From positions 656-64,655 of the forward strand of contig JAUQWV010000003.1 of the NCBI GenBank assembly GCA_030834985.1: a stretch of 64,000 bases of DNA. Reading direction: 5' to 3'. This DNA comes from Candidatus Dojkabacteria bacterium (GTDB taxonomy: Bacteria > Patescibacteriota > Dojkabacteria > J137). Positions 6,992 to 53,500 of this stretch are shown here, one piece after another; position 1 is the first letter of the stretch, and each line of letters starts with the position of its first letter. A model generated the notes under the pieces. The model was not told where the DNA came from and searched no databases. It saw nothing but the letters and a program-made list of their open reading frames with translations. The position numbers and the translations under genes are program-made.

Positions 6992-7067
6992 TGGGGTAGC
7001 TGGAGGGACTTGAACCCTCGACACCCGCTTCCACAGAGCGGTGCTCTACCACTGAGCTACAGCCACC
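6992..7067 (-). tRNA. tRNA-His (anticodon GTG) with an encoded G-1 and no encoded CCA after discriminator C73
   Basis: Reverse complement folds as a cloverleaf. The acceptor is GTGGCTG/CAGCTAC, the D-arm is GCTCAGTGGTAGAGC, the anticodon loop is CTGTGGA, and the T-loop is GGTTCAAGTCC. Confidence 0.85.
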
Positions 7068-7974: not shown

Positions 7975-8001
7975 GGTCGCCCCGACTTGTTAAGTCGGGG
8001 C
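7975..8001 (-). terminator. GC-rich hairpin (ccccgactt gtt aagtcgggg) downstream of the 261-aa gene
   Basis: Perfect 9-10 bp inverted repeat immediately 3' of the stop on the minus strand. Confidence 0.45.
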
Positions 8002-8775: not shown

Positions 8776-8805
8776 TTCAAACCTTTCGGTCTAGTCCAGA
8801 AATAC

Positions 8806-8832
8806 TTCGCCCCCCAGTTACGGGGGGCGAGT
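8806..8832 (-). terminator. GC hairpin (cgcccccc agttac ggggggcg) downstream of the 685-aa gene
   Basis: 8-bp G/C stem about 20 nt after the stop of the upstream minus-strand gene. Confidence 0.45.
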
Positions 8833-8850
8833 TAACTGGACGATTATAGG

Positions 8851-10908: not shown

Positions 10909-11171
10909 TGTGATCCCTCCTAGGATCGAGAACCGAAAGTGGGTACGATGGTGGCAGCAGTTGAACTGCTTCGACCGCACTGGGAACCTAATCGATAGAT
11001 TCACAAAACGGTCGAAGCAGCAGCTTAACCTAAATTATTAATTAATCTCCAGTTGTTAAAGAACTTTTGCAGGGCTTTAAGCCACTGCTCATTTTCTAAA
11101 ACTCAATAGAGATAAAGATATCATCTAAATGGTTTTATACCGGAATTATAGCAAAATATATTACAAATATA

Positions 11172-34818: not shown

Positions 34819-35031
34819 ATATTTTTGTTAATAAATTAAAATAAGTTATTTTAGAACAATTTAAAGGCTAGATAAATCAGCCTTTATAAATTGGTTTTCG
34901 CTAAGTGGGTATTATATAAAATAAGTCTCAACTTAGCAATGCCTTATCTTTAAGCTTTGGAATTATACCATCTTAAAAGCATTTGTGCAGTATTTTAGGG
35001 GAAAATTTAAGGAAATTCGTCCTATATATTT

Positions 35032-36795
35032 TTAGCTGCTTCGTTTTTGTTTTAGTATCAGACTTTCCACATTTTTAAAGTCTTTAGCCTTCTCTATGCT
35101 TCCATTATTTACAAAGAATATCTGATCAGCTTTCTTAATAGTATTAAGCCTGTGAGCAATTATTACTTTAGTAGTCTTTTTAGGCAGTTTATTGATTATA
35201 TTTTGAAGTAATTCCTCAGTTACAGTATCTATATTAGCAGTAGCTTCATCTAGAATTAATAGATCCGGATTGCGCAAAATTATTCTAATAAATGAAATTA
35301 TCTGCTTTTGACCTAAACTGATATTTTCAGCGTTGTTATTAATCGCAGTTTCTAATCCATTATCGAATTTCTCAATAAAGTCCGATAAACCTGCCTCTTT
35401 TAATCTATCCAACAGCTCTTGATCTGATAAGCTAGCAAGTTCATTATTTCCATATCTAATATTTTCACCTACAGTTCCCGTAAATAGCAGTGGATCCTGC
35501 AGTATAAAACCTATTCTATTTGAAAGCTCTTTGAAAGAATAACTTTTAATATCCTTACCCCAGAAATTAATTACCCCGCTTGTAGGGTCATAAAGACGCA
35601 CCATTAAAGATGCCGTTGTACTTTTACCGCCACCAGTTGGCCCTACAAGCGCGTAGGTTTTGCCCTTTTCAAGCTCTAAGTTAACATTCTTTAAAATAGG
35701 ATCTTCATTTTGATAACCAAAATTAACATCTTCAAATTCAATTGCATTTATACTTTGTGACCCTGTATCAGTATTAGAAGATGATTCAACTACTCTTAAA
35801 TTTGATTCAAGCTTTAAAACCTGATTTATTCTGGACCATGCAGCTAACGCTAACTGAACGTTACTCCATATTTGAGCCATCATTCTTAAAGGATCATAAA
35901 ATCTTTGAGTATATGTAAAGAAAGTAAACAGCAGACCAAAGGTGATTTCGCCGCGAGTTACTAAGCTTAGACCATAGACTACAACTATTACTTGAGCCGC
36001 ACTACTTGCCAGATCATAAATTGGCTTTAGAAATTGACTGGCAATATCAGCTTTAATTGATGCTAAGTAGTTTTTTTCGTTGAATTCTTGGAATTTATCT
36101 GCAAAGTAGTCGCGGCGGTTAAAAGCAATAATTACTTTAAATGCGCTTAGTCCTTCTTGGATTTGTGCAGATAAATTCCCTGTTGCATCTAAGCTTACTC
36201 TGTTAAGTCTTTTTAGAATCGGCGAAATCACCTGAGTAATCACAAACAGAATTACCGTAACCGACAATGTAACTGCTGCAAGCTGTATATTGAGCACAAA
36301 CATTGAGATTGCTATGCCAACTAGAACAAAAATGCTACCAAGTAACCTTATTAAGTATTCAGATAAAAATGAATTAACTTTATCGGTATCGTTATTAATT
36401 CTAGAAATTAAATCACCACCTCTATTAGCATTAAAAAATGCTAATGGCAGCATTTGCAGCTTATTAAATATTACGTTTCTTAATTTGAATAAGACTCTTT
36501 GTCCAAGTTTTCCTGTTATATAGATTTGTAAAAAGCTTGCTAAAGCGCCAATTATATATACTAACGCCATTAAGCCAACAAAGGCTAAAAGTGTATTAAG
36601 ATCACGATTTGATAACAAATCATCTAAAGCATCCCCCTGTAGTTTTGGGCCCAAAATACTAGTTAGTGAAGTAACAATAACCATTGTTAAAGCTAAACCC
36701 ATAGCCTTAATTTCTCCACTTATAAAAAGATTAAAACTCTTTATTGTTTTTAATAAGCCTGTTTTTTCTTCTTTGTTATTTAAATTATAGTCCAT
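35032..36795 (-). CDS. ABC exporter, fused permease/ATPase (half of a heterodimeric MsbA/LmrCD-like pair)
   Basis: Six N-terminal TM helices, Walker A GPTGGGKSTT, signature LSLGQKQ, Walker B ILDEATA. Confidence 0.85.
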   Translation of the reverse strand: MDYNLNNKEEKTGLLKTIKSFNLFISGEIKAMGLALTMVIVTSLTSILGPKLQGDALDDLLSNRDLNTLLAFVGLMALVYIIGALASFLQIYITGKLGQRVLFKLRNVIFNKLQMLPLAFFNANRGGDLISRINNDTDKVNSFLSEYLIRLLGSIFVLVGIAISMFVLNIQLAAVTLSVTVILFVITQVISPILKRLNRVSLDATGNLSAQIQEGLSAFKVIIAFNRRDYFADKFQEFNEKNYLASIKADIASQFLKPIYDLASSAAQVIVVVYGLSLVTRGEITFGLLFTFFTYTQRFYDPLRMMAQIWSNVQLALAAWSRINQVLKLESNLRVVESSSNTDTGSQSINAIEFEDVNFGYQNEDPILKNVNLELEKGKTYALVGPTGGGKSTTASLMVRLYDPTSGVINFWGKDIKSYSFKELSNRIGFILQDPLLFTGTVGENIRYGNNELASLSDQELLDRLKEAGLSDFIEKFDNGLETAINNNAENISLGQKQIISFIRIILRNPDLLILDEATANIDTVTEELLQNIINKLPKKTTKVIIAHRLNTIKKADQIFFVNNGSIEKAKDFKNVESLILKQKRSS

Positions 36796-36796
36796 A

Positions 36797-38566
36797 TTAA
36801 TTTTCAGTAGATTGTTGAGATTCGTAAATTTGTTTGTACTCTAAAGAGCTTTTTAGAAGCTCTTCATGAGTTCCTTGAGCTAAAACTTCTCCTTCCATAA
36901 TCAAGATTATCTTGTCGAAATCTTTGATTGAGTCTATTTTTTGAGAGATTACAAGCTGCGTAATACCTGGATACTCATCATCTAAATTTTTAAAGATTTT
37001 CTGCTCAGTACCCTTATCTACTCTAGCCGTAAAGTCATCTAATAGCAGGATCCTCGGATTAATTGCCAAAGCTCTTGCTAAAGTTAAACGCTGTTTTTGT
37101 CCACCCGATAGATTAGAACCTCTTTCGTTTATATAAGTCTCTAAGCCTTGGTCTAAACCGTTAACAAAATTATTAAGTTCGGAAGCCGCAATTACTTTAT
37201 TCAAGTCTGAGCTAGCCTGATGAAAATCTATATTTTCTCCAATTGTGGTATTAAAAATTATACTGTCTTGAAAAACAATACCCATTTGCTTATACAGATT
37301 TTGTAAATTGTAATCTTTTACATTAATGTCATCTATTAATATTTCACCTTCTGTAGGCTCAATTAAACCTGTTAGCAAATACATAACTTGAGTTTTGCCT
37401 GCCGCAGTAGGTCCAATAATTGCAGATTTTTTACCCGCTGGGATAGTGAATGATACATCTTTTAAAATATTTTTCTCATCAAGTATTAGACTTACATTTC
37501 TAAATTCAATTTTGCCTTCGATATCCTTTTGATAAGTTCCTTTACCCTCTTCAACTTTGGAGTCTAGGACTTCGTTGATTCTATTTATTGAAATAAAGGC
37601 CCTAGAAATTAAGTTGCTTATAAATCCAAGAGTTACAATTGGCCAAATTAATATACCTAAGTAAGTGAAAAAAGAAACAAAATCTCCGGGAGTAATACGA
37701 TCTTGCAAAAATTCATTTGCTCCAACATATAAAACTAAGACTCCTCCTAAGCTACTTACAAGATTCATAAATGGAAACACAAAGGCAAAGCCATTAAGTA
37801 TTTGGGAACCCAAAGTCCTTGCTGCAATATTCTGCTCTTCAAACTTTTGAATTTCTGACTTTTGAGAATTTAATACGCGAATTAAACTTGCTGCAACAAT
37901 ACTTTCTGTAATAACTCTATTTAGCGAATCTATTATTATTCTAGATTTAAAGAATAATGGACCAAGTTTTTTAAATACAATAAAAAAGGCGCCGGCGATT
38001 AAAGGGATCATTAATAAACCAGCAATAGCCATTTGCCAATTTATACTAAACATTAAAGCGCCGGCGCCTACAAGTATAAATATCGAAGACAACAGCAAAA
38101 TTAAGCTCTGTGAAATTAATTCACGAACTGCATCCACATCAGATGTTAATATACTTAATAGTTTTGACGGTGTAATTTGATTTATAAATTTGAAAGTCTG
38201 TTTTGCAATCTTGCTGGAAATTGCAACACGTAAATTAAAAGCAACTTTTTGCGATAAATATACACCTGCAACCATCTGCATAATACCTATTGCAAAAGAA
38301 ACAAATATAAGGACAATCATTGTATTAACAAGTTCAGTGTAGTCTTGCCTAAGCGCAGCTGCATCAAAAATATAACCTATATATTTAGGAGTTATTAAAG
38401 ATAATACTGTTGCTGTTATTGTTAATAGAACTAAAAAAGCAGCAACAAATTTGTAAGGTTTTACAAACATTACAACTGTAGCTATAGGATTTGTACCTTG
38501 AAATTGAGGTTTATTGGCTGGATTTTCAGTCACAGAAGTACTTTTTTTAGGTCCTTTAATATTCAT
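36797..38566 (-). CDS. ABC exporter, fused permease/ATPase (partner half)
   Basis: TM domain plus GPTAAGKTQ Walker A, LSGGQKQR signature, LLDDFTA degenerate Walker B. Confidence 0.85.
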   Translation of the reverse strand: MNIKGPKKSTSVTENPANKPQFQGTNPIATVVMFVKPYKFVAAFLVLLTITATVLSLITPKYIGYIFDAAALRQDYTELVNTMIVLIFVSFAIGIMQMVAGVYLSQKVAFNLRVAISSKIAKQTFKFINQITPSKLLSILTSDVDAVRELISQSLILLLSSIFILVGAGALMFSINWQMAIAGLLMIPLIAGAFFIVFKKLGPLFFKSRIIIDSLNRVITESIVAASLIRVLNSQKSEIQKFEEQNIAARTLGSQILNGFAFVFPFMNLVSSLGGVLVLYVGANEFLQDRITPGDFVSFFTYLGILIWPIVTLGFISNLISRAFISINRINEVLDSKVEEGKGTYQKDIEGKIEFRNVSLILDEKNILKDVSFTIPAGKKSAIIGPTAAGKTQVMYLLTGLIEPTEGEILIDDINVKDYNLQNLYKQMGIVFQDSIIFNTTIGENIDFHQASSDLNKVIAASELNNFVNGLDQGLETYINERGSNLSGGQKQRLTLARALAINPRILLLDDFTARVDKGTEQKIFKNLDDEYPGITQLVISQKIDSIKDFDKIILIMEGEVLAQGTHEELLKSSLEYKQIYESQQSTEN

Positions 38567-38631
38567 AAAAAAGAAATTTGCCTATTAGAATCAAATACCG
38601 ATTTGTTCAGTATATCACTTCTAGGCAAGCG

Positions 38632-39714
38632 TTACCTATTCTGAGACAGCCAAATGTTTAGTGTTAAACTACTATCTTTATACTCTTTTGCATTTTCAAT
38701 GCCGATATATCGCCAATGCCAGGCTTCGTGCTGATAGCCTGTTTCTGAGTCTTTACCAGCCGGGTACGATTGCACGAAGCCGTACTTATGAGCATTCTCC
38801 ATAAGCCAGCGTCCTGCAGCACCGTTTTCAAAGTTATTAGTTAAATCAAAGCCGGTTTCTTGGTCTACAAAGTCGACTGCCGTTCCTAACTGATGTTCAG
38901 AAAATCCTGGTCTGGCAGAAACTTTATCAGCTTCATCCTGGCCATACTGTCGTACCCAACCCGCATATGTTCGATATTGATCTAAATAGCTTCTATAACC
39001 CGAAGCAATTACTAAATTTTTATTTAACTCACGCTGTAAATCTCCTGCCATAACTTTTAATGCATCACCTGTTTCTGCAGTTACTAAAATTGGCAGTGAA
39101 CTATTTGTATATAAAAGCAGGTCTTTATTTACATCAACTAGCTGCTTAGGCTCATAATCTAACGGTAGCTTATTCTGTTTATCTACTAAGGCTCTTAAGC
39201 TGTCGCCATCTGCAGTATAAGAAAAAGTATCCCAATCAGAAATTTCTGTTAATCCAAATGGAAGGGTGTACGCATCTCTTTGACCTTTAACCGTAATCTC
39301 ACCTGCGGAACCATTCACGTCTTCTAAGACTACCACTATATTGAATTCGCCTACACCGATATTATTGATTTTTACAACATACCAATAATATGGATCTTCG
39401 TCTTTTGGTCTTTGAGATAGATTAAACTGATATTTTGCCGAAGAGCTTTCTTTAAGCTCAGTTTTTGATTTTAATGTAAAAGTAGCGGAATTTTGTAATG
39501 TTACAAGTACTTTATCGTTATATTGGATCTCTAATGGACCGCTATTTACTGTTTCTTGTTCTTGATCGGGGTTAATAAGGTTTTTTACTGCACTAATTAG
39601 CTCTTCTATTTTATTTGTTCCCGTAACCTGACCAGAAATAAGTAACCCAGCGATAGCAATAACAGCTAGAATAAGTGTTATTAATACTAGTTTTACAACT
39701 ATATTCTTAATCAT
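38632..39714 (-). CDS. VanY-like D-Ala-D-Ala carboxypeptidase (peptidase M15B), membrane-anchored
   Basis: SGYRSYxxQ, SEHQLGTAVD and EAWHWRY zinc-binding motifs. Confidence 0.75.
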   Translation of the reverse strand: MIKNIVVKLVLITLILAVIAIAGLLISGQVTGTNKIEELISAVKNLINPDQEQETVNSGPLEIQYNDKVLVTLQNSATFTLKSKTELKESSSAKYQFNLSQRPKDEDPYYWYVVKINNIGVGEFNIVVVLEDVNGSAGEITVKGQRDAYTLPFGLTEISDWDTFSYTADGDSLRALVDKQNKLPLDYEPKQLVDVNKDLLLYTNSSLPILVTAETGDALKVMAGDLQRELNKNLVIASGYRSYLDQYRTYAGWVRQYGQDEADKVSARPGFSEHQLGTAVDFVDQETGFDLTNNFENGAAGRWLMENAHKYGFVQSYPAGKDSETGYQHEAWHWRYIGIENAKEYKDSSLTLNIWLSQNR

Positions 39715-39738
39715 AAATATAAAATAACCTTAAACCTA

Positions 39739-40578
39739 TTATAGTTCATAGGTATCGGATATTGTAAAGTCTCCAATTTGGGTACGCTCTAGATTTATTA
39801 GTGTAGAAGGGATTTGAAGTTTATTTCCTAAGTCAATTGCAAGCTGGCGAATATAAGTTCCTTTAGAAACTTTTGCAGAAATAGTTATATATGGATATGT
39901 CTCTAAGTATAGTTGATCAGCATTTAAAGGCTCTTTTTTATATGCATTCAATACATTATTAAAATTTTCTAAAACCTGCTCTTTAGATAAAACGCCACTT
40001 TCTAAAAAATCTACTTTATAGATTGATACCTTTTTCGCAGGTAATTCAACTGATTTTGCTAGCTCGTTTTCTTTATAAAATTGAATAATAGATTTTTCAT
40101 CTCCTTTTATAACTTCAAATCTATCAAATGATCTTGCTAATTCACGAAGCTTTTTACCGGCTACCTTTACAGATGAGAATACTGGGACAGTTTGAATGTA
40201 CTCAGGCACAAATTCTGTTAAAGCATCTTTTATAGAATCTACATTTACTTTTATTTCTGTCTTAGCACTATCAACGATTTTACCTTCAGGATCGCCTGAT
40301 AGCGTTTCAAGTCCCAACAGAATTTGTGCCTTATACACTTTATCTTTATTTAAAAAAGAGTCTGACAACTTAGTAGCCTTACCTACCAAAATTAATAAAA
40401 GCCCGCTAGCAAAAGGATCCAATGTTCCTGCGTGTCCTACTTTTCTAGTTTCAAAATGTTTTCTAAATTTATAAACAATATCATGAGAAGAAACTCCAGC
40501 AGGTTTATTGTATGCAAAGATGCCTGAAACTCGGCCAAATTCGTCTTTGTAGATCTGATTAATCTCATATTTATCCAT
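39739..40578 (-). CDS. truB: tRNA pseudouridine-55 synthase
   Basis: HAGTLDPFASGLLLILVGKATK catalytic-Asp motif. Confidence 0.85.
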   Translation of the reverse strand: MDKYEINQIYKDEFGRVSGIFAYNKPAGVSSHDIVYKFRKHFETRKVGHAGTLDPFASGLLLILVGKATKLSDSFLNKDKVYKAQILLGLETLSGDPEGKIVDSAKTEIKVNVDSIKDALTEFVPEYIQTVPVFSSVKVAGKKLRELARSFDRFEVIKGDEKSIIQFYKENELAKSVELPAKKVSIYKVDFLESGVLSKEQVLENFNNVLNAYKKEPLNADQLYLETYPYITISAKVSKGTYIRQLAIDLGNKLQIPSTLINLERTQIGDFTISDTYEL

Positions 40579-40670
40579 ATTGGCAAGTATATCACAGCAA
40601 AACCTATGGCTCTACTCAAAGTATCCATTAGTCTGTTAAAATCAATATAATTAATCGTTACGTAGTAAAT

Positions 40671-41030
40671 ATGCCAGACATCATTTTAGAAGATCAACAA
40701 AAAAGAAAAGAGTTAATGAAAGAGCTTGGCAGTAAAATTAAGCTTGCTAGAGATGAAGCACAGATGTCGCAACTTCAAGTAGGAGTAGCACTAGCTGTAT
40801 CTGACAAAACAATCAGCGGATACGAATCTGGCAGAATTGCACCTCCTATCGATAAATTAATACATTTGGCAGACTTATTTAAAAAACCAATCGCATTCTT
40901 TTTAGGAGCTGACCCTAGAGAATATAAAGTAGCATCCAGACTAAGAGCAGTAGAAATCGCCCTAAGAGACGTACGTAAACAGTTAAATGAAATTCGGCTA
41001 ATTAGTCAGAATACAGATTTAGATGATTAA
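40671..41030 (+). CDS. XRE-family helix-turn-helix transcriptional regulator
   Basis: LGSKIKLARDEAQMSQLQVGVALAVSDKTISGYESG HTH_3 pattern. Divergent from truB. Confidence 0.7.
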   Translation: MPDIILEDQQKRKELMKELGSKIKLARDEAQMSQLQVGVALAVSDKTISGYESGRIAPPIDKLIHLADLFKKPIAFFLGADPREYKVASRLRAVEIALRDVRKQLNEIRLISQNTDLDD

Positions 41031-41042
41031 TTAAGAAGAAAA

Positions 41043-41124
41043 TGCAAGCGGAGGGAATCGAACCCTCACCTCTTGCGAGACTGGTTCCTAAGACCAGCGC
41101 GTATACCAGTTCCGCCACGCTTGC
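41043..41124 (-). tRNA. tRNA-Leu (anticodon TAG), class II with a long variable arm
   Basis: Reverse complement is GCAAGCGTGGCGGAACTGGT...CTGGTCTTAGGAACCAG...GGGTTCGATTCCCTCCGCTTGCA. The anticodon loop is CTTAGGA. Confidence 0.8.
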
Positions 41125-41169
41125 AGTGCGATAATTGTACTCTAAAATCACTCTATTTGTCTATTGGGA

Positions 41170-43905
41170 TTATCTATAAGTTACCGTAGCTTTTCTTCTT
41201 TTTCGTTTGTATTTGTTCACTCCAGCTACAGCACCCGTCGAAGCACTCAATAACCCTAATGCAGCTAAAGGTACTGCTATACCAGTTTCAGAAAGTCCAC
41301 CGCCACCATCCTCATCACCACCACCGCCACCTGAGCCTCCTGTGGTAACAGTTAGCACAGCACTATTAGAGCCATAATTTATTCTAAATATTGTACTGCC
41401 AACTGTGAAAGTTGAGTTATTTGGTAAACCGTTAAACGTTCCTACCAAAGCGCTTGAAGCCTGAATAATTGTAAAAGTTTGCCCAACTGTTGTAGACATT
41501 CCTAAAGCTACATTCAGTGTTGCACTATTTAAGTTTACTGCACCTGTTACATTCAGCTGATCATATTGGCTGCCAACTGTAGTTCCGTTAATTTCAACAT
41601 TAAAGCTATTTGTATTAGCAAACACCACATTACCTGTTACATTTAGAATCCCTGGACTGGTTCCAGGTGCTATTCCTCCTGTTCCTCCTCCTGTAATTAC
41701 TCCAACTCTACCTGTTCCGCCTAAAACACCTGTTCCGCTCAAAGTTACGGCACTACCTGCCTGCTGACCGTTGATATTTAGCCTACCAGCTGCAACTGTT
41801 GTTGTTCCTGTATATCCGTTATTGGCTGTTAAAGTAAATGTACCTGTTCCAACTTTAGAAACTCCTCCAGCACCATTAATAATACCACTAAATGTAGAAG
41901 TGCCATTATTCGCACCTACTGATAATGTAGCATTCCCTAAAGTAATTGCTGAATTGGAATTTTCATTACTTAAAGAGCCAAGTGTTTCTGAAAAAGAATT
42001 TAAATCTAAAGTTGACCATTGGTTTAGCCAAACACTAATAGTATCAGGGAATGCGTTTACACTGGCAGATTTTCTAAGAGTTACATCCTGCAAATTTATT
42101 TGTGCAGCACTATATGTATTTGCAGTACTAAGCTGAATTACACCTGAACCTGCACCAAATCGTTGAAATATTACATTTCCACTTACACTGCCCGATATCC
42201 CTCCTGAGATTGTTAAAATAGCATCACCATTTTGAACAAACATTGCCTCAGCACCAGCAATAGTAATTGGACCACCATAAACATTTGTACCTGATGCTGA
42301 TGTTAGTGCACCACCGAAATCTCCTCCTAAACCTGTAATTTGTAAAGGCTCATTTGCAATGGTAATTCCACCTATTAAAGCTAATACACCTCCATTTTCT
42401 ACTACAGTTCCCGATGCACTATTACCCAAACCATTAGCATGCGATACATTCAGCCTAGTATTTGGATTAATAATTGTATCTCCTGTATAAGTGTTGTTTG
42501 CCTTAAAAGAAACTCCCTTTGCTCCAATCCATATATTTGAAGAACCGGTGATAGGAACTAAGAATTCACACCGCTCGGTAGCATCTGCAATACTACCATC
42601 TATAGAGAAGTTTTCTGCTGTAGGTGTAAAATTTCCTACTCCACTGATTCTAGCAGTATTACCATCTGCGTCATTACAAATCATACCCTCTGCTGATACA
42701 GTAGAGCTGTCTAACATTTCAAGAACTCCACCATTTATAACAAGACCTGCAAGTGAAGATGTGCCTCTAATCACAGCTTTACCTATATTAATTTCTAGTA
42801 AGCCAATATTATTATTTACGCTTTCAGCATATTGTAAAAGCCCATCTGAATAGATAAATATTTCAGCATCTGCATTTATTTGATCACTGCTTTCTAGCGA
42901 TAGTATTGCACTTTCGCTGCCTCCGATGCCATTTCCAACAGCTACTAATGATGATGATACTGCTACTCCACTTGATTTATTTAATGACACCTCCCCTTCC
43001 TCTACAGTAAATGGGCGAGTAAATGTATTACCTGATGAGCCACTTATAATCAATTCGCCACCACCATTTTTGTAGATTTCAGAGTCTCCGGTAATAACAC
43101 CTGATAACGTTAAAGTTCCTGAATCTACAGTAATCCACGTTAATCCGTCTTCGAAGAAGACATCTATTGGCCCAGCCCAGGTGTTATTACCGGAGACATT
43201 ATGCAACGCACCATAATTTTCATAAAAGCCATTACCATCTAGTACTAAAGATGGTGTTGATATTGTTATATTACCAATTAATTCAATTGTTTTTGGATGA
43301 GTAACTGTTGCCGCTGAATTCTGTAGAGCCGTTGAAGAAGCTAATCTTAATATACCGTCCTGAACAATAGTATCGCCATTAAAAGTATTATTTCCCGATA
43401 AAGTTAATCGTCCCGGATACTGTTTATAGAGATCTACCCCTGTATTATTACTAATATTCCCTATCCAATCTATACCTGTACTTTCATCTATAACTTGAAT
43501 ATTTAAATAGTCGAAATATAGTGTAACGTCAATAGACCATTCCAATACTCCAGAGTTATCGTCATCATCAAATATAAAGTCACCTCGTAAATCAATAGCA
43601 TTACCTGATATTTCGTAATCGTTCCATCCTACCCATATTCCCTGTATATCTAAACCAGCACTCATATTATTTACACTGGTATAATTTTCGCCCCCATTTG
43701 GGAAAGGAAATTCTAAAGTATCGCCATCTGAAGGAGTTGTACAACCAGACCAATTACCATTAGTACCCCAATTACTATTAACTGATCCATTCCAAACACA
43801 GGTAGCTGCATATAAGCTATTTTGGCTGCTTACAAAAAGAGAAAGGCCCAGCACAACTGAAGTAAAAAGAATAAATTGTAATAATCTAGAGCTGTTAATA
43901 TTCAT
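41170..43905 (-). CDS. Large (911 aa) secreted beta-helix-like surface protein with a C-terminal sortase-type sorting signal (LSETG, hydrophobic stretch, KRKRRK tail)
   Basis: Signal peptide, repetitive G/N/T-rich beta-strand repeats, a GGGGGDEDGGGG linker, and the C-terminus LSETGIAVPLAALGLLSASTGAVAGVNKYKRKRRKA. Confidence 0.75.
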   Translation of the reverse strand: MNINSSRLLQFILFTSVVLGLSLFVSSQNSLYAATCVWNGSVNSNWGTNGNWSGCTTPSDGDTLEFPFPNGGENYTSVNNMSAGLDIQGIWVGWNDYEISGNAIDLRGDFIFDDDDNSGVLEWSIDVTLYFDYLNIQVIDESTGIDWIGNISNNTGVDLYKQYPGRLTLSGNNTFNGDTIVQDGILRLASSTALQNSAATVTHPKTIELIGNITISTPSLVLDGNGFYENYGALHNVSGNNTWAGPIDVFFEDGLTWITVDSGTLTLSGVITGDSEIYKNGGGELIISGSSGNTFTRPFTVEEGEVSLNKSSGVAVSSSLVAVGNGIGGSESAILSLESSDQINADAEIFIYSDGLLQYAESVNNNIGLLEINIGKAVIRGTSSLAGLVINGGVLEMLDSSTVSAEGMICNDADGNTARISGVGNFTPTAENFSIDGSIADATERCEFLVPITGSSNIWIGAKGVSFKANNTYTGDTIINPNTRLNVSHANGLGNSASGTVVENGGVLALIGGITIANEPLQITGLGGDFGGALTSASGTNVYGGPITIAGAEAMFVQNGDAILTISGGISGSVSGNVIFQRFGAGSGVIQLSTANTYSAAQINLQDVTLRKSASVNAFPDTISVWLNQWSTLDLNSFSETLGSLSNENSNSAITLGNATLSVGANNGTSTFSGIINGAGGVSKVGTGTFTLTANNGYTGTTTVAAGRLNINGQQAGSAVTLSGTGVLGGTGRVGVITGGGTGGIAPGTSPGILNVTGNVVFANTNSFNVEINGTTVGSQYDQLNVTGAVNLNSATLNVALGMSTTVGQTFTIIQASSALVGTFNGLPNNSTFTVGSTIFRINYGSNSAVLTVTTGGSGGGGGDEDGGGGLSETGIAVPLAALGLLSASTGAVAGVNKYKRKRRKATVTYR

Positions 43906-43945
43906 CTCATTTTATCTTACAGACTTTTTTTCTTCATTTCAAATT

Positions 43946-44605
43946 TTAAATATATCCAATAAGACTAGCCTTAACAACAAATCTTTTTTCTGAAGTATAT
44001 AAAGGAGTACAGGTGTATAAAGTAATTTCTCGGACTAATTCTGGATCAGGCTCTCTGACTTCTACCTGATCAGGATTAACTAGAAGAGTTTCGTAAACTT
44101 TGTACCAAAAAATACGGCCTTCCCAGTATATATAGATATCATCTCCATATTGCATCTCTTCTAAATTGTAGAAAGTATTGGTGTTTGGCGGAAGGTATTG
44201 AAACCTATGGCCGGCTAAGACCATATTCCCGCTTACAAGTGGAGTTGAAGATGCCGGCTCTCGCCAAACACCCTCATAAACATTCAGAATATCTAAAGTT
44301 TCTCCTTCAACAATTGCAGTATCTACATTTATTTTAGGAATATATAACTTATTACCTACTGTCGTTTGCTCATTATCTGTACTACCGGGAATTGTCTGGT
44401 CATTTACCGCAGCATCAGTAATTGCATTTTCTAAAGTTATTGGAAGATCATTACTATTTGGGACCAGAGCATAAATATGATATTGAATCTTCGGCCACAT
44501 CGGATAAAGAAAATAAGCCATTAAAACTACTACTACTACAGCTACAAGAACTTTAACAACTTTTGAATCTGCTTTTTCAAATTTAAAATTCTTAACGTTA
44601 AACAT
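43946..44605 (-). CDS. Sortase-family transpeptidase
   Basis: N-terminal TM anchor. Catalytic His in LAGHRF, Cys in ITLYTCTP (TLxTC), and a downstream Arg. Confidence 0.8.
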   Translation of the reverse strand: MFNVKNFKFEKADSKVVKVLVAVVVVVLMAYFLYPMWPKIQYHIYALVPNSNDLPITLENAITDAAVNDQTIPGSTDNEQTTVGNKLYIPKINVDTAIVEGETLDILNVYEGVWREPASSTPLVSGNMVLAGHRFQYLPPNTNTFYNLEEMQYGDDIYIYWEGRIFWYKVYETLLVNPDQVEVREPDPELVREITLYTCTPLYTSEKRFVVKASLIGYI

Positions 44606-44638
44606 TTGTGAGATAATTAAATTGTATTAAGTTTAATT

Positions 44639-46633
44639 ATGAAAAAATTTGTATTTTTCATTTCCTTTGTTTTTGTAACTATCCTATTCCATTCTACACT
44701 ATCTGCTAGCCTCAAAGCAGTCTCGTTTGAATACCCCGAATACAATGTAGACATTTCGATTAATACCGATTCATCTTTTACTGTTACTGAAAAAGCTGTT
44801 TATAGGGTTTATGGAGATTTCCATGGATTAAGAAGAGACTTAACTTTGGCCGACGCAAGAAGAGACGAACTTTGCAGAGCTGCAAGCAACTTGTATTGCG
44901 GAGGCTTTGACAGAGTTGTTGTAAATTCAGTTAAAGATTTAAGTGGAAACGATATCTCTAATCTTATTAAACTCTATGTGATTGAGGATGAAGATAATGA
45001 TAAAAGATCTATGAGATTTGAATGGGAAATTTTCCCAAACGGTGAAAATCAAAATGGTACTCAATTTGGTTGGATACTTAACTATACAATCTACGGCGGA
45101 ATTGCCGCTGTTGAAAATTCGCCATATTTTTACTGGAATTTATTACCGGAAGACAGAAGCGGAATTGTAGACAGCTCAGTTATAAGTATTAAATTACCAC
45201 CGTCTGCAGCACTTGATATCAGTAAGCTGAAAGTCTATACAGACATGCTCTTTAGACAATCAAGTACAGAAAACTCTATTACTTTTCAGCTAAATAATTT
45301 ACCATCATACGGTCCATTTACAGCTGCATATCAATTTGAAAGTTCAGAGATTCAATTACCAGGGCAAATTACATATACAATAAGTCCTGCATTTTCATAT
45401 AGTGTTTACTTAGATAGTATTGATGTTACAGATCAAGTAGATGGCGTTATTAAATCAGTAACGGCAGGACAGCATTTAGTCAGATTTGAACATATTGGCT
45501 ATGAGACAGTCGAACAACTAGTTGATGTCGAATCAGGTAAAACTAGAATTTTAGATATTAATTTAAAGCCGCATCCTTGGATGCAGATACTCTTAATAAT
45601 AAATAATTTGATATGTATATGCGGGTGTTTGCTAATTCCATTCGGACTTTTAGCAGTATATATGCACTATCGTAAGAGAGGTCGAGATAAAGATATGCCA
45701 AAAACTATAATTCCTTTATTTAAACCACCAGCAAACACCCGCCCATACTTAGTCGGTTCTCTTGCCGATGAGCAGGTTGATAGGCACGATGTAGTTGGTA
45801 CTATTATCGATTTAGCATATAGAGGATATCTAAAAATTAAAGAGATAGACAAAAATAAAAATTATGAATTAACAAAATTAGAAGGCAAATCAGATGATCC
45901 AGGACTTAACGAAATAGAAACTCAAATTTTTAATGCACTATTTAAAAATGGCGATATTGTTCAGACAAAGGATTTAGGCACATCATTTCCTTCTGATTAT
46001 TTAAAAATTCAACAAAATATTTATAAGGAGATGGTTAATGAAGGTTACTTTAACCGAGCGCCAAAAACTACTATTGGGCTTTATGCAGGATTTGGAGTTT
46101 TTGCAGTAGTTTTTGGCTTTTTAGCAACAATTTGTGTAACTACAATATTAATTACATTCTTAGGCGTAATAACTTTATTTACACCTGGAATTCTTATTGT
46201 ATTTGTTGGCATTGCAATACTGATTATTGCCAAATTTATGCCAGCTAAAACAGCTAAAGGTAGCAAAGTGTATGCAGATATTTTAGGCTTTAAAATGTAT
46301 ATGCAAACTGCTGAACGCTTTACAGTTCAAAAGCTTGAGCCAGAACATTTTGTTAAATATTTAAGTTATGCAATTGTCTTTAAAATAGAAAAAGAATGGG
46401 CAAAGAAGTTTGAAGATATTTATAAAGGACAGCCTGAGTGGTTTGAAGGAACAAACGATATATATAATGCCTTATGGGTCAGCTCTTTTGCCAGAAGCTT
46501 TAGTAACTCTACAACTCAAAGTATGATGCCAATAACATCTGGGAGTTCCAGTGGAAGTGGATGGAGTGGCGGTGGTTCTTTCGGAGGATTCTCCGGAGGA
46601 GGTGGCGGTGGCGGCTCCTCCGGCGGTTGGTAA
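44639..46633 (+). CDS. DUF2207-family membrane protein (664 aa) with a Gly-rich C-terminus
   Basis: Signal peptide, central TM helices, and a terminal SGSGWSGGGSFGGFSGGGGGGGSSGGW tail typical of DUF2207. Confidence 0.7.
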   Translation: MKKFVFFISFVFVTILFHSTLSASLKAVSFEYPEYNVDISINTDSSFTVTEKAVYRVYGDFHGLRRDLTLADARRDELCRAASNLYCGGFDRVVVNSVKDLSGNDISNLIKLYVIEDEDNDKRSMRFEWEIFPNGENQNGTQFGWILNYTIYGGIAAVENSPYFYWNLLPEDRSGIVDSSVISIKLPPSAALDISKLKVYTDMLFRQSSTENSITFQLNNLPSYGPFTAAYQFESSEIQLPGQITYTISPAFSYSVYLDSIDVTDQVDGVIKSVTAGQHLVRFEHIGYETVEQLVDVESGKTRILDINLKPHPWMQILLIINNLICICGCLLIPFGLLAVYMHYRKRGRDKDMPKTIIPLFKPPANTRPYLVGSLADEQVDRHDVVGTIIDLAYRGYLKIKEIDKNKNYELTKLEGKSDDPGLNEIETQIFNALFKNGDIVQTKDLGTSFPSDYLKIQQNIYKEMVNEGYFNRAPKTTIGLYAGFGVFAVVFGFLATICVTTILITFLGVITLFTPGILIVFVGIAILIIAKFMPAKTAKGSKVYADILGFKMYMQTAERFTVQKLEPEHFVKYLSYAIVFKIEKEWAKKFEDIYKGQPEWFEGTNDIYNALWVSSFARSFSNSTTQSMMPITSGSSSGSGWSGGGSFGGFSGGGGGGGSSGGW

Positions 46634-46635
46634 AA

Positions 46636-47079
46636 TTATAACTTTTCTAATCTCTCAATAGTCTTTCTTATTGTTTCACTGCCATCTTTTATTTCAGCGG
46701 TTTCACTATTAGTTATTACACCATCACTCAACATATCTCTTAATTTATTAATAATCTCAACTAACATTCTATAATCTTCTTCGCCGACTTGATTCAAAGA
46801 TGAATAAATCATAACGACACTTCTTAGCGATGCTTTTATTGCAATTTTATCTTCTTCTCTGCCTTCTGAGCTATCAACTGCATCTTCAAGTCTTTCTACA
46901 GTCGCTTCTATCTCTGTAGTAGAAGTTATAGGTGTAGCTTCACCAGTAAAAAACTGCTCTCTAACTTTAGGATTTAATGTACCTACTACCTCTTGAAGTA
47001 TTCTTGCAACTTCTTGCTTTCTTTGAGCAACGATATCAGGTTGTGTCTCGTTAGTCGTATCTAAAACAGAGTTTGACAT
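46636..47079 (-). CDS. Hypothetical acidic protein (147 aa)
   Basis: ORF only. No recognisable motifs. Confidence 0.45.
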   Translation of the reverse strand: MSNSVLDTTNETQPDIVAQRKQEVARILQEVVGTLNPKVREQFFTGEATPITSTTEIEATVERLEDAVDSSEGREEDKIAIKASLRSVVMIYSSLNQVGEEDYRMLVEIINKLRDMLSDGVITNSETAEIKDGSETIRKTIERLEKL

Positions 47080-47153
47080 AATGTTTATCTAAAAAGTAAA
47101 TACAAATATCATATTAGAGCTTAAAATACATTTTTGTAAAGCAGGTGAAAGTC

Positions 47154-47672
47154 CTAAAAAGATATACTTACTGATTTTTCAAGCCCATCAAGAGTATTAG
47201 GAGTACCTAAAGTTGAGTCTGCAGATAAAGTTACACTTGTAAATCTGCCAGGGTCTTGTTTTTTATCAAATATAATTTTGGCAAAATTTGTAATATCCTT
47301 AAATCCAGTAGCATTTGCAGATCTAACTTCTAGAGATATCGTTCCTGCGGAATTATTAATTTTCTGATTAACAGCTATAACATTAGAAGACATTATAATA
47401 TCTTCTACTTCAAGTAAATCTTTATCAAAAGTTAGTTCAAAATTTCCCGAAGTAACAGGAGTTGTAACTAGTATCTGTGAGTTTAGGTCTACTACTACTT
47501 TGTCTACATAAAGCGTGTCATCTTCAACCTGACTAAGTGCAACAAGGTTATAAACATTTGCTGATGAGCTCTCTAACGCATTATTCTGATTAATTTGATT
47601 GATTAAAAATACTCCACCAAGTGTGGCTGCAAGTATTCCCACTATGATTAAAAGATTTCTGAACTGCTGCAT
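47154..47672 (-). CDS. Membrane-anchored protein (172 aa) with a single cohesin-like beta-sandwich domain
   Basis: N-terminal TM. The LNSQILVTTPVTSGNFELTFDKDLLEV pattern resembles the cohesin core motif. Confidence 0.5.
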   Translation of the reverse strand: MQQFRNLLIIVGILAATLGGVFLINQINQNNALESSSANVYNLVALSQVEDDTLYVDKVVVDLNSQILVTTPVTSGNFELTFDKDLLEVEDIIMSSNVIAVNQKINNSAGTISLEVRSANATGFKDITNFAKIIFDKKQDPGRFTSVTLSADSTLGTPNTLDGLEKSVSISF

Positions 47673-47700
47673 AAATCTATTTAATCATAAATAACAAAAT

Positions 47701-47743
47701 AGCGCCAGTGCGTTGTTCCCTTTGGTTCCAACGCACTGGCGCT
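47701..47743 (-). terminator. 15-bp stem hairpin (agcgccagtgcgttg ... caacgcactggcgct) downstream of fusA
   Basis: Long perfect inverted repeat. On the minus strand it is followed by attttgttattt. Confidence 0.6.
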
Positions 47744-47765
47744 TTAAAAATTTAAGATTAAACTA

Positions 47766-49919
47766 TTATTTAGCTGAATCTACTAACACTTTCTCCATAA
47801 TATTCTTAGGAACTTCAGCATAGTGGCTTGGCTCCATGTTTGGAGCAGCAGTTCCAGAAGTTAAGTTTCTTAAATCAGAAACATAACCGAATAATTCAGA
47901 AAGCGGAGCTTCTGCAATAATCTCTTTTGTTTTACCTCTTTGCAATAAATTCTTTACAATACCTCTTTTAGAAGATAAGTAGCCTGTGCAAGCACCTACG
48001 TATTCTTCTGGAGCATTGATTGTTACAGTCATAATAGGCTCTAATAATACAGGGTTGCAAGCTTTCATTGCATTTTTAAATCCATAGTAAGCACAAGTTC
48101 TAAATGTATCTGTATTTGAATCAACTTCGTGATAGGAACCATCAACAATTTCAGCTTGAACATCTACAACAGGATATCCACCCAATGGGCCGGCTGTAAT
48201 TGATTCCTGAATTCCTTTATCGATAGCTGGGATATATTCTCTTGGAATTGATCCTCCTTTAATACTGTCTACAAATTTGTAACCTTCACCTCTTTCAAGT
48301 GGTTTAAGTACAAATGCGATATCAGCATATTGACCTGCACCACCAGACTGTTTCTTTAACAATTCTCGGTGTTCACCACTTGCTGTAATTGTTTCTCTAT
48401 AGGCAACTTGAGGTTTACCAACATTTACTTCAATTCCGTATTCTCTTTTTAGAATATCAACTTTAATGTCTAAGTGAAGCTCGCCCATTCCTGCAATAAT
48501 TACTTGTCCAGTTTCGCTATCCGTTTCAGCTTTAAATGTTGGATCTTCCGATACCAATTTAGCTAAAGCTTCTGATAATTTTTCTTGATCTGATTTTGTT
48601 TTTGGCTCAATTGCAAATCTTACAACAGGTTCTGCAAAGTTAATTCCTTCTAGAACAATTGGCTTATTTTCATCACAAATTGTGTTTCCTGTTTTTGTAT
48701 CTTTAAATCCAACAATTGCAGCAATATCGCCTGCTCTAACCTCTTTAACCTCTTCTCTGTGATTAGCATGCATCATTAAAATTCTACCTACTCTTTCTTT
48801 ACCGCCGCTTGTTGAATTGTAGACATATGTTCCAGACTGTAATTTACCAGAGTAAACTCTAAAGAATGCAAGGTTACCAACGTGTGGATCAACTGCTAAC
48901 TTGAATACTAAACCTGCAAATGGCTCTGTATCGTTTAATTGTCTTGTAATAGTTTCGCCTGTATTAGGGTCAGTTCCTGGGATTTGATCTTTATAAACTT
49001 TTTCTTCATGAGTTTCAGGATCTTCTTTTGCAAAATACTTATCGTGTGGTGATGGCAAGTATCTGCAAACATTGTCCAACATAGCTTGAACACCTTTGTT
49101 TCTTAAAGATGAACCTGCCATAACAGGGAATATTTTGCTTGATAGAACTCCTGCTCTTATTGCAGCTTCAAGCTCAGAAGCAGAAATCTCCTGACCATCT
49201 AGATATTTTTCAGCAACTGCATCATCAACATCTGCTGCAGCTTCAATTAATTTGTTTCTCCAAGTTGTAGCATTCTCTTTTAACTCTTCAGGTATATCAA
49301 CAACGTCAATTACTTTGCCTTCGTCATCTTTATGAATTAAAGCCTTAAATTGAACTAGGTCAATAAGACCGTGGAAGTCACTTTCAATACCGATTGGTAA
49401 ACTTATTGGAACTGCTTTATCTGTTAGATGTTCGTTAATACTATCGTATGATTTATAGAAATCTGCACCGATGTTATCTAGCTTATTGATGTAGCACATT
49501 CTAGGTACTCTATATTTTTCTGCCTGGAACCATACTTTAGAAGATTGAGGTTCTACACCCATTTTTCCGTCAAATACAACAACAGCCCCATCTAAAACTC
49601 TTAATGATCTTTCTACTTCAGCTGTAAAGTCAACGTGCCCTGGAGTATCAATAATGTTAAATCTATAAGTCTGTCCATGTAATTCCCAGAATGCCGTTGT
49701 TGCGGCAGATTGAATTGTAATACCACGTTCTCGCTCCTGGTCCATAAAGTCCATTTCTGCTGCACCTTCATGAACTTCACCAGTTTTATGTTTTCTTCCT
49801 GTAAAGAACAATATTCTTTCTGTAGTAGTAGTTTTACCTGCATCTACATGAGCAATAATTCCTATATTCCTATAAAAATGGGTATCTTTTACCTTTGAAT
49901 AGTCAATAACACCTGCCAT
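47766..49919 (-). CDS. fusA: Elongation factor G
   Basis: [24 protein letters not shown] and domain IV/V motifs. 717 aa. Confidence 0.95.
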
Positions 49920-50529: not shown

Positions 50530-53500
50530 CTAGTTATTTGTAAAACCGATTTCCCTAATTGAATATTTATCGTAGTTTAGATCCTGCTTAAAGACTTCTC
50601 TGTATCTTGCATCATAATAGAATACATGAGCAGGCTGCAATTGATTAGCATTTAGGTTAATGTCTCGCTGTAAGAATAGATCATCACTTGTAACACTACC
50701 TTTAATCATTAAGCCATCACCTTTAGTAGAAGTATTCAATCGATCTAACTTAGTAATTAACTGTCCATCTGTAAAGAATGCTGCTTCAATATAGTCATAT
50801 CTTGCTAAAGCCGAATCGTTTACATCTAATGGACCGCTTGCCTGTGTTCCGCCGTTTTCAATTAAGATATCTCTTGTGACTACAAAAATACATCCATTTG
50901 TAGCATTATTTGCAGTAAAGTTAGGTGTGATTTCAACAACAGCATTTGGATAATCGGAATCTAATACTGTTGCAGTGTCACCTCGAACAAAGAATATTGT
51001 TTTAGTATTGCAGGTTGCATTCTCAACTCGTAATGTTCCATTAATTAAGACATGAGCCTTTGCACCTGGCGATACACCCAAGAAATTTGAGGCTTCTCCT
51101 GTTAACACTGCATCTCCAGCGATTGTTGTTATTGGTGCAGCATTATTCTTTTTAACTACTTCATAAATATATGTAAACCAATTGCCATAACCTGAATCTA
51201 AAGGCGGTTTTGTTGATAAATCATCGTATCTAGTTAAATATTGAGATGTTTTTGACTGTTTTCTTAAAGGCATATCTGCAGTTCCGCTAATTGAGCTGAA
51301 TGATGACAAGAATACAGATAACTTATCTGTTAACAATGGCTGAGGAATACTTGGTGCTGCTCTTAAGTCGTCAGCAAGCTCATTAAGCCCATTTGGTACT
51401 GAAATTCCAATTATTCCATCCCCAGCAGAAACATCGCCGTTGTATCCAATCAGCCAAGGTCTCTGCAAGAATGCAGTTGCTGAAATTCCTCTCTGGTTAC
51501 ATGCTGAGTCTCTAGTAAATGCATAGAATAAGTAATTTGATTGTTTTGTTGGATCATCATCCTGGTATTCCCTTTGCCCTAAGCTTGCCTCTGTTACAAA
51601 TCCATTCCAAGGATTTATTGAATCAAACGTGATACTACCATTATTGTAATTTGCAGTATTAGGAATTTCCATACCTAAGTCAATGTAACTACCGGCAGAT
51701 AAATCTCTTAGAGCTGAATCGTCAATATCGCTTGTTACAAATGATTTTAATCTTAACCCATTAATTTCGTTAAACTGCCAATTAATTCTAAATTGTGACG
51801 GAGTTGTGTAGGTAGCAGTTCCAAAGCCCAATGGTGCCGGAGGAACAGTATCTACCCCCCAATTTACAAGTGAGCCCATAGCGTTAACTTTTCGGTACAC
51901 AAAGGAACTTTGGGGCGTTGAATACGACGTCTTAAGTCTACCTTCAGGGTCTCTAAACAACGCCGCAACAAAGTACGAAAATTTACCAAGCGGGAAACTA
52001 TTATCGAGTCTAATTGTAAATCTTGAAGTTAAATTTGTTCCTGATGCTTGAGCCGTAGATGTACTTCTAAAGCCCATCAATGTACCACCTAATCCTTGTA
52101 AGTTACCCGCATCTATAGTGCTTGCCCAGCCTGAGCCAGTATAAACTCTTGCCGCAGAAGGATTACCTGCTGCATCAAGTACGATTTTAGCTGCGAATGC
52201 TCTAGCACCATTAACTTTAGGTAAAAGTAATGCTTCCGTTTGAGTCTGCCCAACTTCTATATTAGAGGTTACTTGAGCAGGAATTCCAGACTGACTGTTG
52301 AAAGGATCGTTTGCAGGAACAATAGCTACCCAGGCTTCTACAAATGTATTGCCCGGTAGTGTTGTAAAGTTTAATCTAAAGTCTACCGGATTTGTTACTA
52401 ATGGAGATCCAGCCTGACCAGAAAAACCACCTCCACAAACATCTGCCTGAATACCGCTTGTAGTAACTTCTGTAGAATCATCAATTACTGTAAATCTAAA
52501 TACTGAACTTAAAGATGTTAAGCTTCCATTACTTTTTTGCACCCTCCAGCAATACGTAGTACCTCGAGTTAAATTTGGTAATGAATTAACTGCCCCATAA
52601 TTTATATATGCCCCTGTACAATTTGGACTTACCTGCACAGTATAACTATTATTGTTAGTTGGACATCCTGTTCCCCAGCCGCTTGAATTAACATCGTAAG
52701 ATAAAGGAACACTATTACCTACTCCCAAAGTAACATTTGCATTATTAGCAGGGCTTGTTAATGCTGCTACACCTGGAGCTGACTGACTACAAGGCGGCTG
52801 AACTCTAAAATTTACAACTGGGGAATCAGTAAATGCAGAACCGTTATGTTTACGAACAAACCATTCTACAAACGAGTTTGTAGGAAATGTAAGCTGGTGA
52901 GTATTTGAGTTTAAGCCATAGGCATTTCTATACTCAACATAATTTCCACCATTTACTCTTACAAACATTGATGAGTCGTATCGCATTGGGCATCCTCTAC
53001 CCCACCCTGATGAATTAAGATCATACGCAAAAGTTACAGTTGCCGAGGTTGTTGTAGTAAAAATCTGCCCATTACCTGGAGTATATAATGTTGCAGCCCC
53101 TGGAGATAATGGACTACAGTTACATGCCGCAACTACATCAGCTTGAGTGTTTGAACCAGTGGTTCCATTAGGCCTTACCAAGTATTTGTATGTAGGATCA
53201 TTACTACATTGTCTGCTTGTATAACCGTTCTGTGGAGTAATTGGCATACAGAATGTATTACTATTAGCACCTTGCTGACAGAATGGCCCATTTATCCAGC
53301 TACAGCTACTTACACCATCACCACATAACGGATAAAAACCGTTAGACCAAATACCACACCTATCACCGCACCTTCCAATACTTACATTACAAGCACATTG
53401 AGCATCTAAATTACTTTGGTCAGGGCAAAGAGGAGAAACACAAATCTTACGTGTGGGATGACAAATCGACCTATAAGCCCCAGTTGCACCTCTAGGACGG

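Follow-up and report, generated by a model that had tools for sequence, protein, structure and literature searches.

A sortase gene paired with an LSETG-tagged beta-helix protein gene in a Candidatus Dojkabacteria chromosome

Within a 64-kb stretch of the genome of a Candidatus Dojkabacteria bacterium, a member of the candidate phyla radiation (CPR), a gene encoding a sortase adjoins a gene encoding a 911-amino-acid (aa) secreted beta-helix protein that ends in a cell-wall sorting signal with the motif LSETG. From gene order, sequence comparison and predicted structures we consider it likely that the two constitute a sortase and its dedicated substrate in a monoderm CPR bacterium, by which the beta-helix protein would be covalently attached to the cell wall. 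This stretch, hereafter the window, had previously been annotated from its letters alone (the original prediction), and the observation of a sortase beside its substrate made there is correct, its core reading being well supported. The system itself is real but ordinary: a sortase with a wall-sorted protein in a monoderm organism is textbook biology, and the genes are already annotated publicly. The exact sequences of the sortase, the substrate and a neighbouring DUF2207 protein are held in NCBI and public databases, from Candidatus Dojkabacteria or 'Patescibacteria group' metagenome-assembled genomes, under the names 'class E sortase' or 'sortase A', 'autotransporter-associated beta strand repeat-containing protein' and 'DUF2207 domain-containing protein', respectively. 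More than half of CPR genomes encode sortases, which are near-ubiquitous among the Microgenomates (PMC6744442), so that one in this organism is expected rather than surprising. The premise of the original prediction that such an organism should have a 'minimal envelope' was likewise off the mark, CPR bacteria being regarded as monoderm and frequently encoding peptidoglycan synthesis (PMC13293708; 10.1101/2025.01.22.634366).

The sortase and its neighbouring substrate

The sortase passed the thresholds of two family models, namely Pfam PF04203 (Sortase; 6.3e-25, 87.8 bits against a cut-off of 26.6) and TIGR01076 (65.4 bits against 39.35). The LAGHR and TLYTC motifs named in the original prediction were confirmed, and in an alignment of 30 sortase homologues (alignment A1) His133, Cys199 and Arg208 were invariant, the His/Cys/Arg set aligning to the active sites of the sortase structures 4d70 and 5cuw. 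Three stretches, EGVWRE, GHRFQYLPPN and TLYTCTPLYTS, make up a clade signature in this alignment. The AlphaFold2 (AF2) model had a mean predicted local distance difference test score (pLDDT) of 86.3 and consisted of a helix at aa 14-46 followed by a beta-barrel, in agreement with the membrane anchor and eight-stranded barrel of the sortase superfamily (MEROPS C60); when compared with the PDB using Foldseek, its top 50 matches were all sortases. Judged by these comparisons the gene product is a real membrane-anchored sortase with catalytic His, Cys and Arg residues, and with predicted enzyme activity. A search of 1.84 billion cluster representatives returned 59 sortase relatives at E <= 1e-30 and 905 at E <= 1e-10.

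The neighbouring protein matched the Pfam PATR (autotransporter-associated beta-strand repeat) model at 2.2e-15 and TIGR02601 at 1.7e-18, and its AF2 model, built with 15 homologues (pLDDT 86.9), was all-beta from aa 35 to 855, as would be expected of the beta-helix that the original prediction had placed here, and beyond that stretch had a disordered Gly-rich linker and a helix at its end. The best Foldseek matches in the PDB were the passenger beta-helices of the autotransporters Ssp, Ag43, EspC, SepA and pertactin. At the N-terminus the model gave a helix at aa 5-25 with low pLDDT, and the L-x-A|A site of the putative signal peptide is conserved in the orthologues, six of which (P0093-P0098) are 47-54% identical to the window protein. 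The protein ends in GGGG-LSETG-IAVPLAALGLLSASTGAVAGVN-KYKRKRRKATVTYR, which together with the N-terminal signal peptide gives it the full make-up of an LPXTG-type sorting signal with Ser instead of Pro after Leu; the hydrophobic stretch and basic tail are thus where the original prediction had them, the former being 22 rather than 21 residues long. Orthologous substrates have an equivalent Gly/Asn/Ser-rich linker ahead of the motif. Pfam and NCBIfam searches of the substrate matched no autotransporter beta-barrel (PF03797), finding the PATR/TIGR02601 repeats only, and anchoring through an autotransporter barrel or in the PEP-CTERM manner was rejected, as there is neither a barrel nor a PEP-CTERM tail and the C-terminus is a sorting signal.

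We used 123 loci, comprising 122 fetched loci with sortase relatives and the window, and scanned their non-redundant long open reading frames (ORFs) for a signal made up of [LIVMF]xxTG, a hydrophobic segment and a basic tail, counting an ORF as near when it lay within 500 nucleotides (nt) of the sortase. Such a signal was present in 37 of 189 near ORFs, against 3 of the 785 that lay farther off (odds ratio 63, Fisher p 1e-24). The residue following the first position of the 37 near signals was Ala in 19, Pro in nine, Val in five, and Thr, Arg, Gln and Ser in one each. Sortase and signal-bearing protein were mostly encoded in the same direction and often by abutting genes, and in the window the sortase gene lies upstream of the substrate gene on the same strand. 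The order of a sortase followed by a PATR protein was retained in six further loci (L001, L003, L007-L009 and L043), with LAETG or LADTG as the motif. Furthermore, three single ORFs among the matches of the cluster-representative search join a substrate tail with LAKTG or LPNTG directly to a sortase region (P0344, 2568 aa; P0316, 708 aa; P0293, 511 aa), the hydrophobic stretch after the motif being clear in P0344 and P0316 and less clear in P0293; if these are not artefacts of assembly, read-through or gene calling, they provide Rosetta-stone support for the pairing. Conserved synteny, the enrichment of signals beside sortases and the existence of fusion proteins together make it very probable that the adjacent beta-helix protein is the substrate of the sortase.

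The spacer between the two genes carries a promoter-like element, TTGAAA-N17-TAAGAT, identified by a consensus scan and kept in the orthologous loci L001 and L003, with a putative function only. Since this element ends about 8 nt ahead of the substrate ATG, the substrate transcript may be near-leaderless. Across the cluster the promoter and terminator scan gave overall counts at background, and only this conserved spacer element stood out.

At the locus of a second sortase paralogue (L010, BOLA01000001.1), a gene for a SipW-like signal peptidase I adjoins one for a 203-aa TasA/camelysin-like secreted protein (4469..5710), a few kb from the paralogue, which has no sorting-signal protein beside it.

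The window is part of a core chromosome, encoding SecY, EF-Tu, EF-G, a ribosomal-protein block, DnaG and four tRNAs, and both SecY and a VanY D-Ala-D-Ala carboxypeptidase are encoded in the same window as the sortase cluster, the gene for the VanY-type peptidoglycan enzyme lying two genes from it. The G+C content at third codon positions (GC3) of the sortase, substrate and DUF2207 genes (0.20-0.24) is like that of the EF-G and EF-Tu genes, i.e. native, and horizontal acquisition of the cluster was rejected on the grounds of this native composition. The fusA (47766..49919) and tuf (33610..34818) genes are about 13 kb apart (33610..49919), and between them lie the sortase cluster, tRNA-Leu, a gene for an XRE-type helix-turn-helix protein, truB, vanY and two ABC transporter genes, in an order that is identical in L003.

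Table 1. Coordinates of the sortase cluster and its features within the window.
Feature	Position	Strand	Description
Substrate gene	41170..43905	(-)	911 aa, secreted, PATR (autotransporter-associated beta-strand) repeats
Cell-wall sorting signal	41173..41295	(-)	LSETG (aa 871-875, 41281..41295), 22-residue hydrophobic IAVPLAALGLLSASTGAVAGVN, basic tail KYKRKRRKATVTYR
Gly-rich flexible linker	41296..41340	(-)	aa 856-870, GGSGGGGGDEDGGGG; pLDDT <50 from aa 858; precedes the sorting motif
Beta-helix passenger	41341..43803	(-)	aa 35-855; AF2: short regular strands, mostly pLDDT >90
Predicted Sec signal peptide	43804..43905	(-)	~aa 1-34, ...SLYA|AT; read from sequence, putative cleavage site
Sortase/substrate spacer	43906..43945	(-)	40 nt; promoter-like TTGAAA-N17-TAAGAT at 43942..43914
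Sortase gene	43946..44605	(-)	219 aa; N-terminal membrane anchor and C-terminal catalytic beta-barrel
RFVVKA, catalytic Arg208	43967..43984	(-)	Invariant in A1
TLYTC, catalytic Cys199	44009..44023	(-)	aa 195-199; invariant in A1; aligns to active-site Cys of PDB sortases
LAGHR, catalytic His133	44204..44218	(-)	aa 130-134; invariant in A1; aligns to catalytic His of 4d70, 5cuw
EGVWRE, beta3/beta4 loop, Trp114	44258..44275	(-)	Placed by phmmer alignments to 5cuw, 4d70; Trp in at least 90% of A1
Sortase transmembrane helix	44468..44566	(-)	aa 14-46, hydrophobic KVVKVLVAVVVVVLMAYFLYPMWP; AF2 helix 14-46; type II membrane anchor
DUF2207/sortase divergent spacer	44606..44638		33 nt; conserved short motif AATTATCTCA
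DUF2207 membrane protein gene	44639..46633	(+)	664 aa; divergent from the sortase gene, 33-nt spacer

The LSETG signal and the class of the sortase

The original prediction described LSETG as carrying Ser in place of Pro. Because the orthologues (six cluster representatives and the protein of L043) carry LAETG, LADTG or LANTG at the same position, it is best read as a lineage-specific Ala-to-Ser variant of an LAxTG tag, i.e. of the class E type, LAXTG being the signal of class E sortases (PMC5148588). The orthologous tails after the motif are alike (NKYxxKRxRLKKNFR). The Ser codon of LSETG is TCT, and the motif is identical in five strain variants of the species, in which 2-15 other residues differ, some of them flanking the motif, so that LSETG is neither an error nor a decaying site. 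Other proteins had been expected to share the LSETG tail; neither the window nor the 122 fetched loci yielded another LSxTG tail, and the tail is shared only at the level of L[A/S]xTG. The substrate set was judged from the window, where no other sorting signals were found and two ORFs had loosely similar tails.

Signals of the L[A/S]xTG type are not new, LSxTG having already been described in actinobacteria that use class E sortases. Ten of the 25 wall proteins detected in Trueperella pyogenes, which has a sortase E, carry LSXTG and eleven carry LAXTG (PMC7350218), and proteins with LSKTG, LSATG and LSNTG are listed for Bifidobacterium bifidum (PMC4751264). Mutants of the class E housekeeping sortase of B. 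bifidum accumulate precursors of sortase-dependent proteins with [L/I/V][S/A]XTG, and the authors presume that the enzyme recognises [L/I/V][S/A/P]XTG (PMC8603203). The signal that the original prediction called non-canonical thus falls within an L[A/S]xTG type already on record.

Assignment of the sortase to a class with hidden Markov models (HMMs), as had been proposed, gave class E as the best NCBIfam model (NF033747) at 74.4 bits, short of its 160-bit cut-off, with classes C and D lower still at 54-62 bits. Across the 30 homologues of A1 the models for classes C, D and E scored similarly, the lowest E-values being 1.1e-24 for class C and 2.9e-21 for class E. The best PDB sequence match was the Clostridium perfringens SrtD structure 4D70 (2.5e-13), which was also the best Foldseek match (3.4e-12, 32% identity) and was followed by class C, E and A structures at near-equal E-values; classification by structure was given up, since structures of classes D, C, E and A were not discriminated. 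Class E enzymes have been proposed to recognise the Ala after Leu via a conserved Tyr in the beta3/beta4 loop (SrtE1 Tyr229; Kattke et al., PMC5148588), and C. perfringens SrtD (CpSrtD), which has Phe at this position, shows a preference for LPQTGS and leaves LAETG unprocessed (PMC5148588). Both phmmer alignments place Trp114 of the window sortase at the position of SrtE1 Tyr229 and CpSrtD F92, and this Trp is nearly invariant in the clade and is retained in sortases whose neighbour bears LPxTG. A comparison of the sortases from Ala-, Pro- and Val-type loci for residues separating them found phylogenetic signal only, with Trp114 constant.

Formal membership of class E was rejected, the enzyme falling short of the HMM cut-off and having no Tyr at the diagnostic position. 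Two further marks of the class point in different directions: class E substrates carry LAXTG, as do those of the window orthologues (LAETG, LADTG, LANTG) as far as gene adjacency tells, whilst class E housekeeping enzymes are not clustered with their substrates (PMC8603203) and 37 non-redundant loci have a substrate no more than 500 nt from the sortase, besides the fusion ORFs. The classification is ambiguous, the enzyme being of class E type by its apparent signal yet not a curated member of class E. What novelty remains is at the level of the clade, whose CPR sortases lie under all class thresholds, have Trp for Tyr and a variable residue after Leu, and are tightly paired one to one with their substrates. 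We raise only tentatively, as less likely than its opposite, that those sortases of Dojkabacteria and other, related CPR bacteria which bear 'GHRFQYLPPN / EGVWRE' form a separate class, distinguished by a single neighbouring and sometimes fused substrate, Trp in place of the class E Tyr on the ridge touching the residue after Leu, tolerance in LxxTG (Ala, Ser, Val, Thr or Pro) and the anchoring of beta-helix adhesins. If so, the sortases of this class would anchor autotransporter-like beta-helix adhesins that may attach these probable episymbionts to host cells.

Predicted wall attachment and its alternatives

The gene pair suggests a conventional sorting pathway. The 911-aa protein would be exported via Sec by its N-terminal signal peptide, and its C-terminal hydrophobic segment and basic tail would keep it in the membrane, where the membrane-anchored sortase, using Cys199 together with His133 and Arg208, would cut LSETG between Thr874 and Gly875. 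Resolution of the acyl-enzyme by the amine of a peptidoglycan precursor would then leave the beta-helix covalently on the wall via its Gly-rich spacer, where it would probably serve as an adhesin. Several points weigh against this reading. Neither in vitro cleavage of LSXTG nor action of class E enzymes on it has been published (PMC7350218); LSxTG was seen once among the 37 sortase-adjacent signals; the window sortase lies under every curated class cut-off and lacks the Tyr proposed for Ala recognition in class E; and the survey of this genome for substrates covered 64 kb.

The uniqueness of LSxTG among the 37 signals and the want of published LSXTG cleavage would also suit a motif disabled by the change from Ala to Ser, in which case the protein would merely be anchored in the membrane by its C-terminus and the sortase would act elsewhere or not at all. 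This is very unlikely, given that LSETG and its spacing are fixed in the five strain variants while the flanking residues vary, that the sortase gene has stayed intact, no catalytic residue being lost, that the clade accepts six other residues there (A, P, V, T, Q and R) in neighbouring signals, and that B. bifidum proteins with [L/I/V][S/A]XTG pile up as precursors when the sortase is mutated (PMC8603203). There is a somewhat larger, though still small, probability that the signal is processed and the product ends up off the peptidoglycan, either shed by hydrolysis or moved to an S-layer or lipid acceptor. In its favour, the sortase is tied one to one to its neighbour, at times by fusion, unlike the unclustered housekeeping class E enzymes (PMC8603203); on the other side stand a Gly-rich, wall-spanning linker and a classical tripartite signal, both typical of wall anchoring, the frequent encoding of peptidoglycan synthesis in CPR genomes (PMC13293708), and the VanY-type peptidoglycan enzyme encoded two genes away.

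The possibility of pilus-like polymerisation raised in the original prediction, in which the sortase would link copies of the beta-helix protein head to tail via lysine in the fashion of class C, gained no support. Some members of the family score about equally on class C and class E models, class C structures are among the top Foldseek matches, and clustering of sortase and substrate is typical of pilus loci. However, regular-expression searches found neither a YPK-type pilin motif nor an E-box in the substrate, which is modelled as a beta-helix and not as an Ig-like fold, and no DP[FWY] lid motif in the sortase; each locus has a single substrate gene, and the mature region of the substrate has 9 Lys only. 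We regard pilus assembly as extremely improbable and rejected it for want of a lid, pilin motif and E-box, together with the beta-helix fold and the single substrate gene. The divergently oriented DUF2207 protein had been counted as part of the cluster in the original prediction. It is present, with matches to both the N-terminal (PF09972; 6.6e-14, 52.9 bits against a cut-off of 24.4) and C-terminal (PF20990; 2.5e-40, 139.2 bits against 33) domains, and could be thought of as a functional third component, for instance a membrane partner of the sortase co-regulated from the divergent spacer, since the divergent layout with a spacer of 33-59 nt is conserved in the closest relatives (L001-L004, L007-L009, L043 and L044) and the window spacer holds the conserved motif AATTATCTCA. 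Against this, DUF2207 stands beside the sortase in only four of the 40 loci whose flanks reach 2.5 kb or more in either direction, these being the four best-scoring orthologues, and in the loci that bear it the surrounding EF-G, TruB, VanY and ABC transporter genes are syntenic as well. The only study of DUF2207 reports a stress and biofilm phenotype in Streptococcus mutans (PMC10457818). Because the housekeeping flanks are syntenic in the same loci, shared ancestry suffices to explain the adjacency, which on this comparison of loci is lineage-level synteny; a functional role in sorting is improbable, and we treat DUF2207 as a neighbour and not as part of the system. Covalent attachment of the beta-helix protein to the wall by the adjacent sortase remains the reading that we favour.

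Other genes of the window and relation to known systems

The region 7990..11004 (-) of the window contains two ORFs, 7990..8775 with a GC3 of 0.46 and 8851..11004 with a GC3 of 0.61, against native values of approximately 0.20-0.26, neither of which had a Pfam match. A tRNA-His gene (6992..7066) lies near these ORFs of foreign composition, which are probably a recently acquired island. The 717-aa ORF of this region ends in SFPSG-IVIVGGALIVGAVAIT-RRRAVKTA, a tripartite-looking tail without LxxTG. At 11220..12479 (-) a 419-aa secreted protein has ...EETTTTGFDLKS, a hydrophobic segment, RLIKRTRAR and a further tail of ~37 residues; its TGFD context resembles that of sorting signals beside CPR sortases in L070, L098 and L112, but it has no Leu and the tail is long, so that either a degenerate signal or an ordinary transmembrane anchor may be present here. 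An S8 subtilase with a C-terminal type I dockerin domain is encoded at 12519..14888 (-), and a membrane-anchored 172-aa protein encoded beside the sortase cluster (47154..47672, (-)) gave a weak cohesin match (E = 0.004) with no PDB sequence match. The two might make up a cohesin-dockerin pair for surface display in a CPR bacterium; the cohesin-like candidate was set aside, its match being weak and lacking support from PDB sequences. Three further, very large putative surface proteins have no sortase signal, namely a 2049-aa protein with PPC, TSP3 and CarboxypepD_reg domains (441..6590, (-)), a 1193-aa protein with NHL repeats and CarboxypepD_reg (15198..18779, (-)) and a Cys-rich 1043-aa protein without a Pfam match (50530..53661, (-)); the first two are apparently anchored by transmembrane segments near the C-terminus.

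The gene pair illustrates the probable means by which a CPR bacterium fastens a large, adhesin-like beta-helix to its wall; host attachment, on which these bacteria with their reduced genomes depend, is likely to be mediated by surface proteins. A further case of L[A/S]xTG signals, from outside the actinobacteria, is thereby added, with enzymes lacking the Tyr proposed for Ala recognition in class E, which is relevant to what governs sortase specificity and to efforts to find orthogonal sortases for protein ligation.

Amongst characterised enzymes, SrtE1 and SrtE2 of Streptomyces coelicolor (class E, PDB 5CUW; PMC5148588) share with the window sortase a membrane anchor, the His/Cys/Arg triad and the best-scoring class model, and have a counterpart to their signal in the orthologous window-type substrates, in which a residue other than proline follows Leu (LAETG, LADTG, LANTG). 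The window enzyme differs from them in scoring 74 bits against 160, in having Trp114 for Tyr229 and in belonging to a low-GC CPR organism and not an actinobacterial host; its gene lies beside that of its substrate, whereas housekeeping class E genes are unclustered (PMC8603203), and its clade relatives also stand beside LPxTG or LVxTG substrates. The B. bifidum enzyme BF1_0427 (PMC8603203) and the LSXTG proteins of T. pyogenes (PMC7350218) resemble the window pair in the use of Ser alongside Ala after Leu and in the large, secreted, adhesion-related surface proteins concerned, but there one housekeeping enzyme of an actinobacterium serves many scattered substrates, in contrast to the one adjacent substrate in the CPR window. 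C. perfringens SrtD (4D70) is the best match in the PDB by both sequence and Foldseek and likewise has an aromatic residue other than Tyr, F92, at the position of Trp114, although it prefers LPQTGS and class D NCBIfam models score below class E for the window sortase. Class C pilus sortases are similarly clustered with their substrates, and some members of the family have comparable class C HMM scores, whilst the window system is without lid, pilin motif, E-box and Ig-like pilin fold and has a single substrate gene.

The PATR beta-helix passenger occurs on three anchoring systems, these being LAxTG with a sortase in Dojkabacteria, PEP-CTERM tails (VPEPS...) and the autotransporter beta-barrels of proteobacteria; the homologues with PEP-CTERM tails are apparently sequences of the Verrucomicrobia or Planctomycetes type. 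The window substrate has in common with autotransporter (type V) passengers and PEP-CTERM beta-helix proteins the PATR/TIGR02601 repeats, a long right-handed beta-helix and adhesin-like surface homologues, and is set apart from them by a passenger that is joined to a sortase signal in place of a PF03797 barrel or a PEP-CTERM tail.

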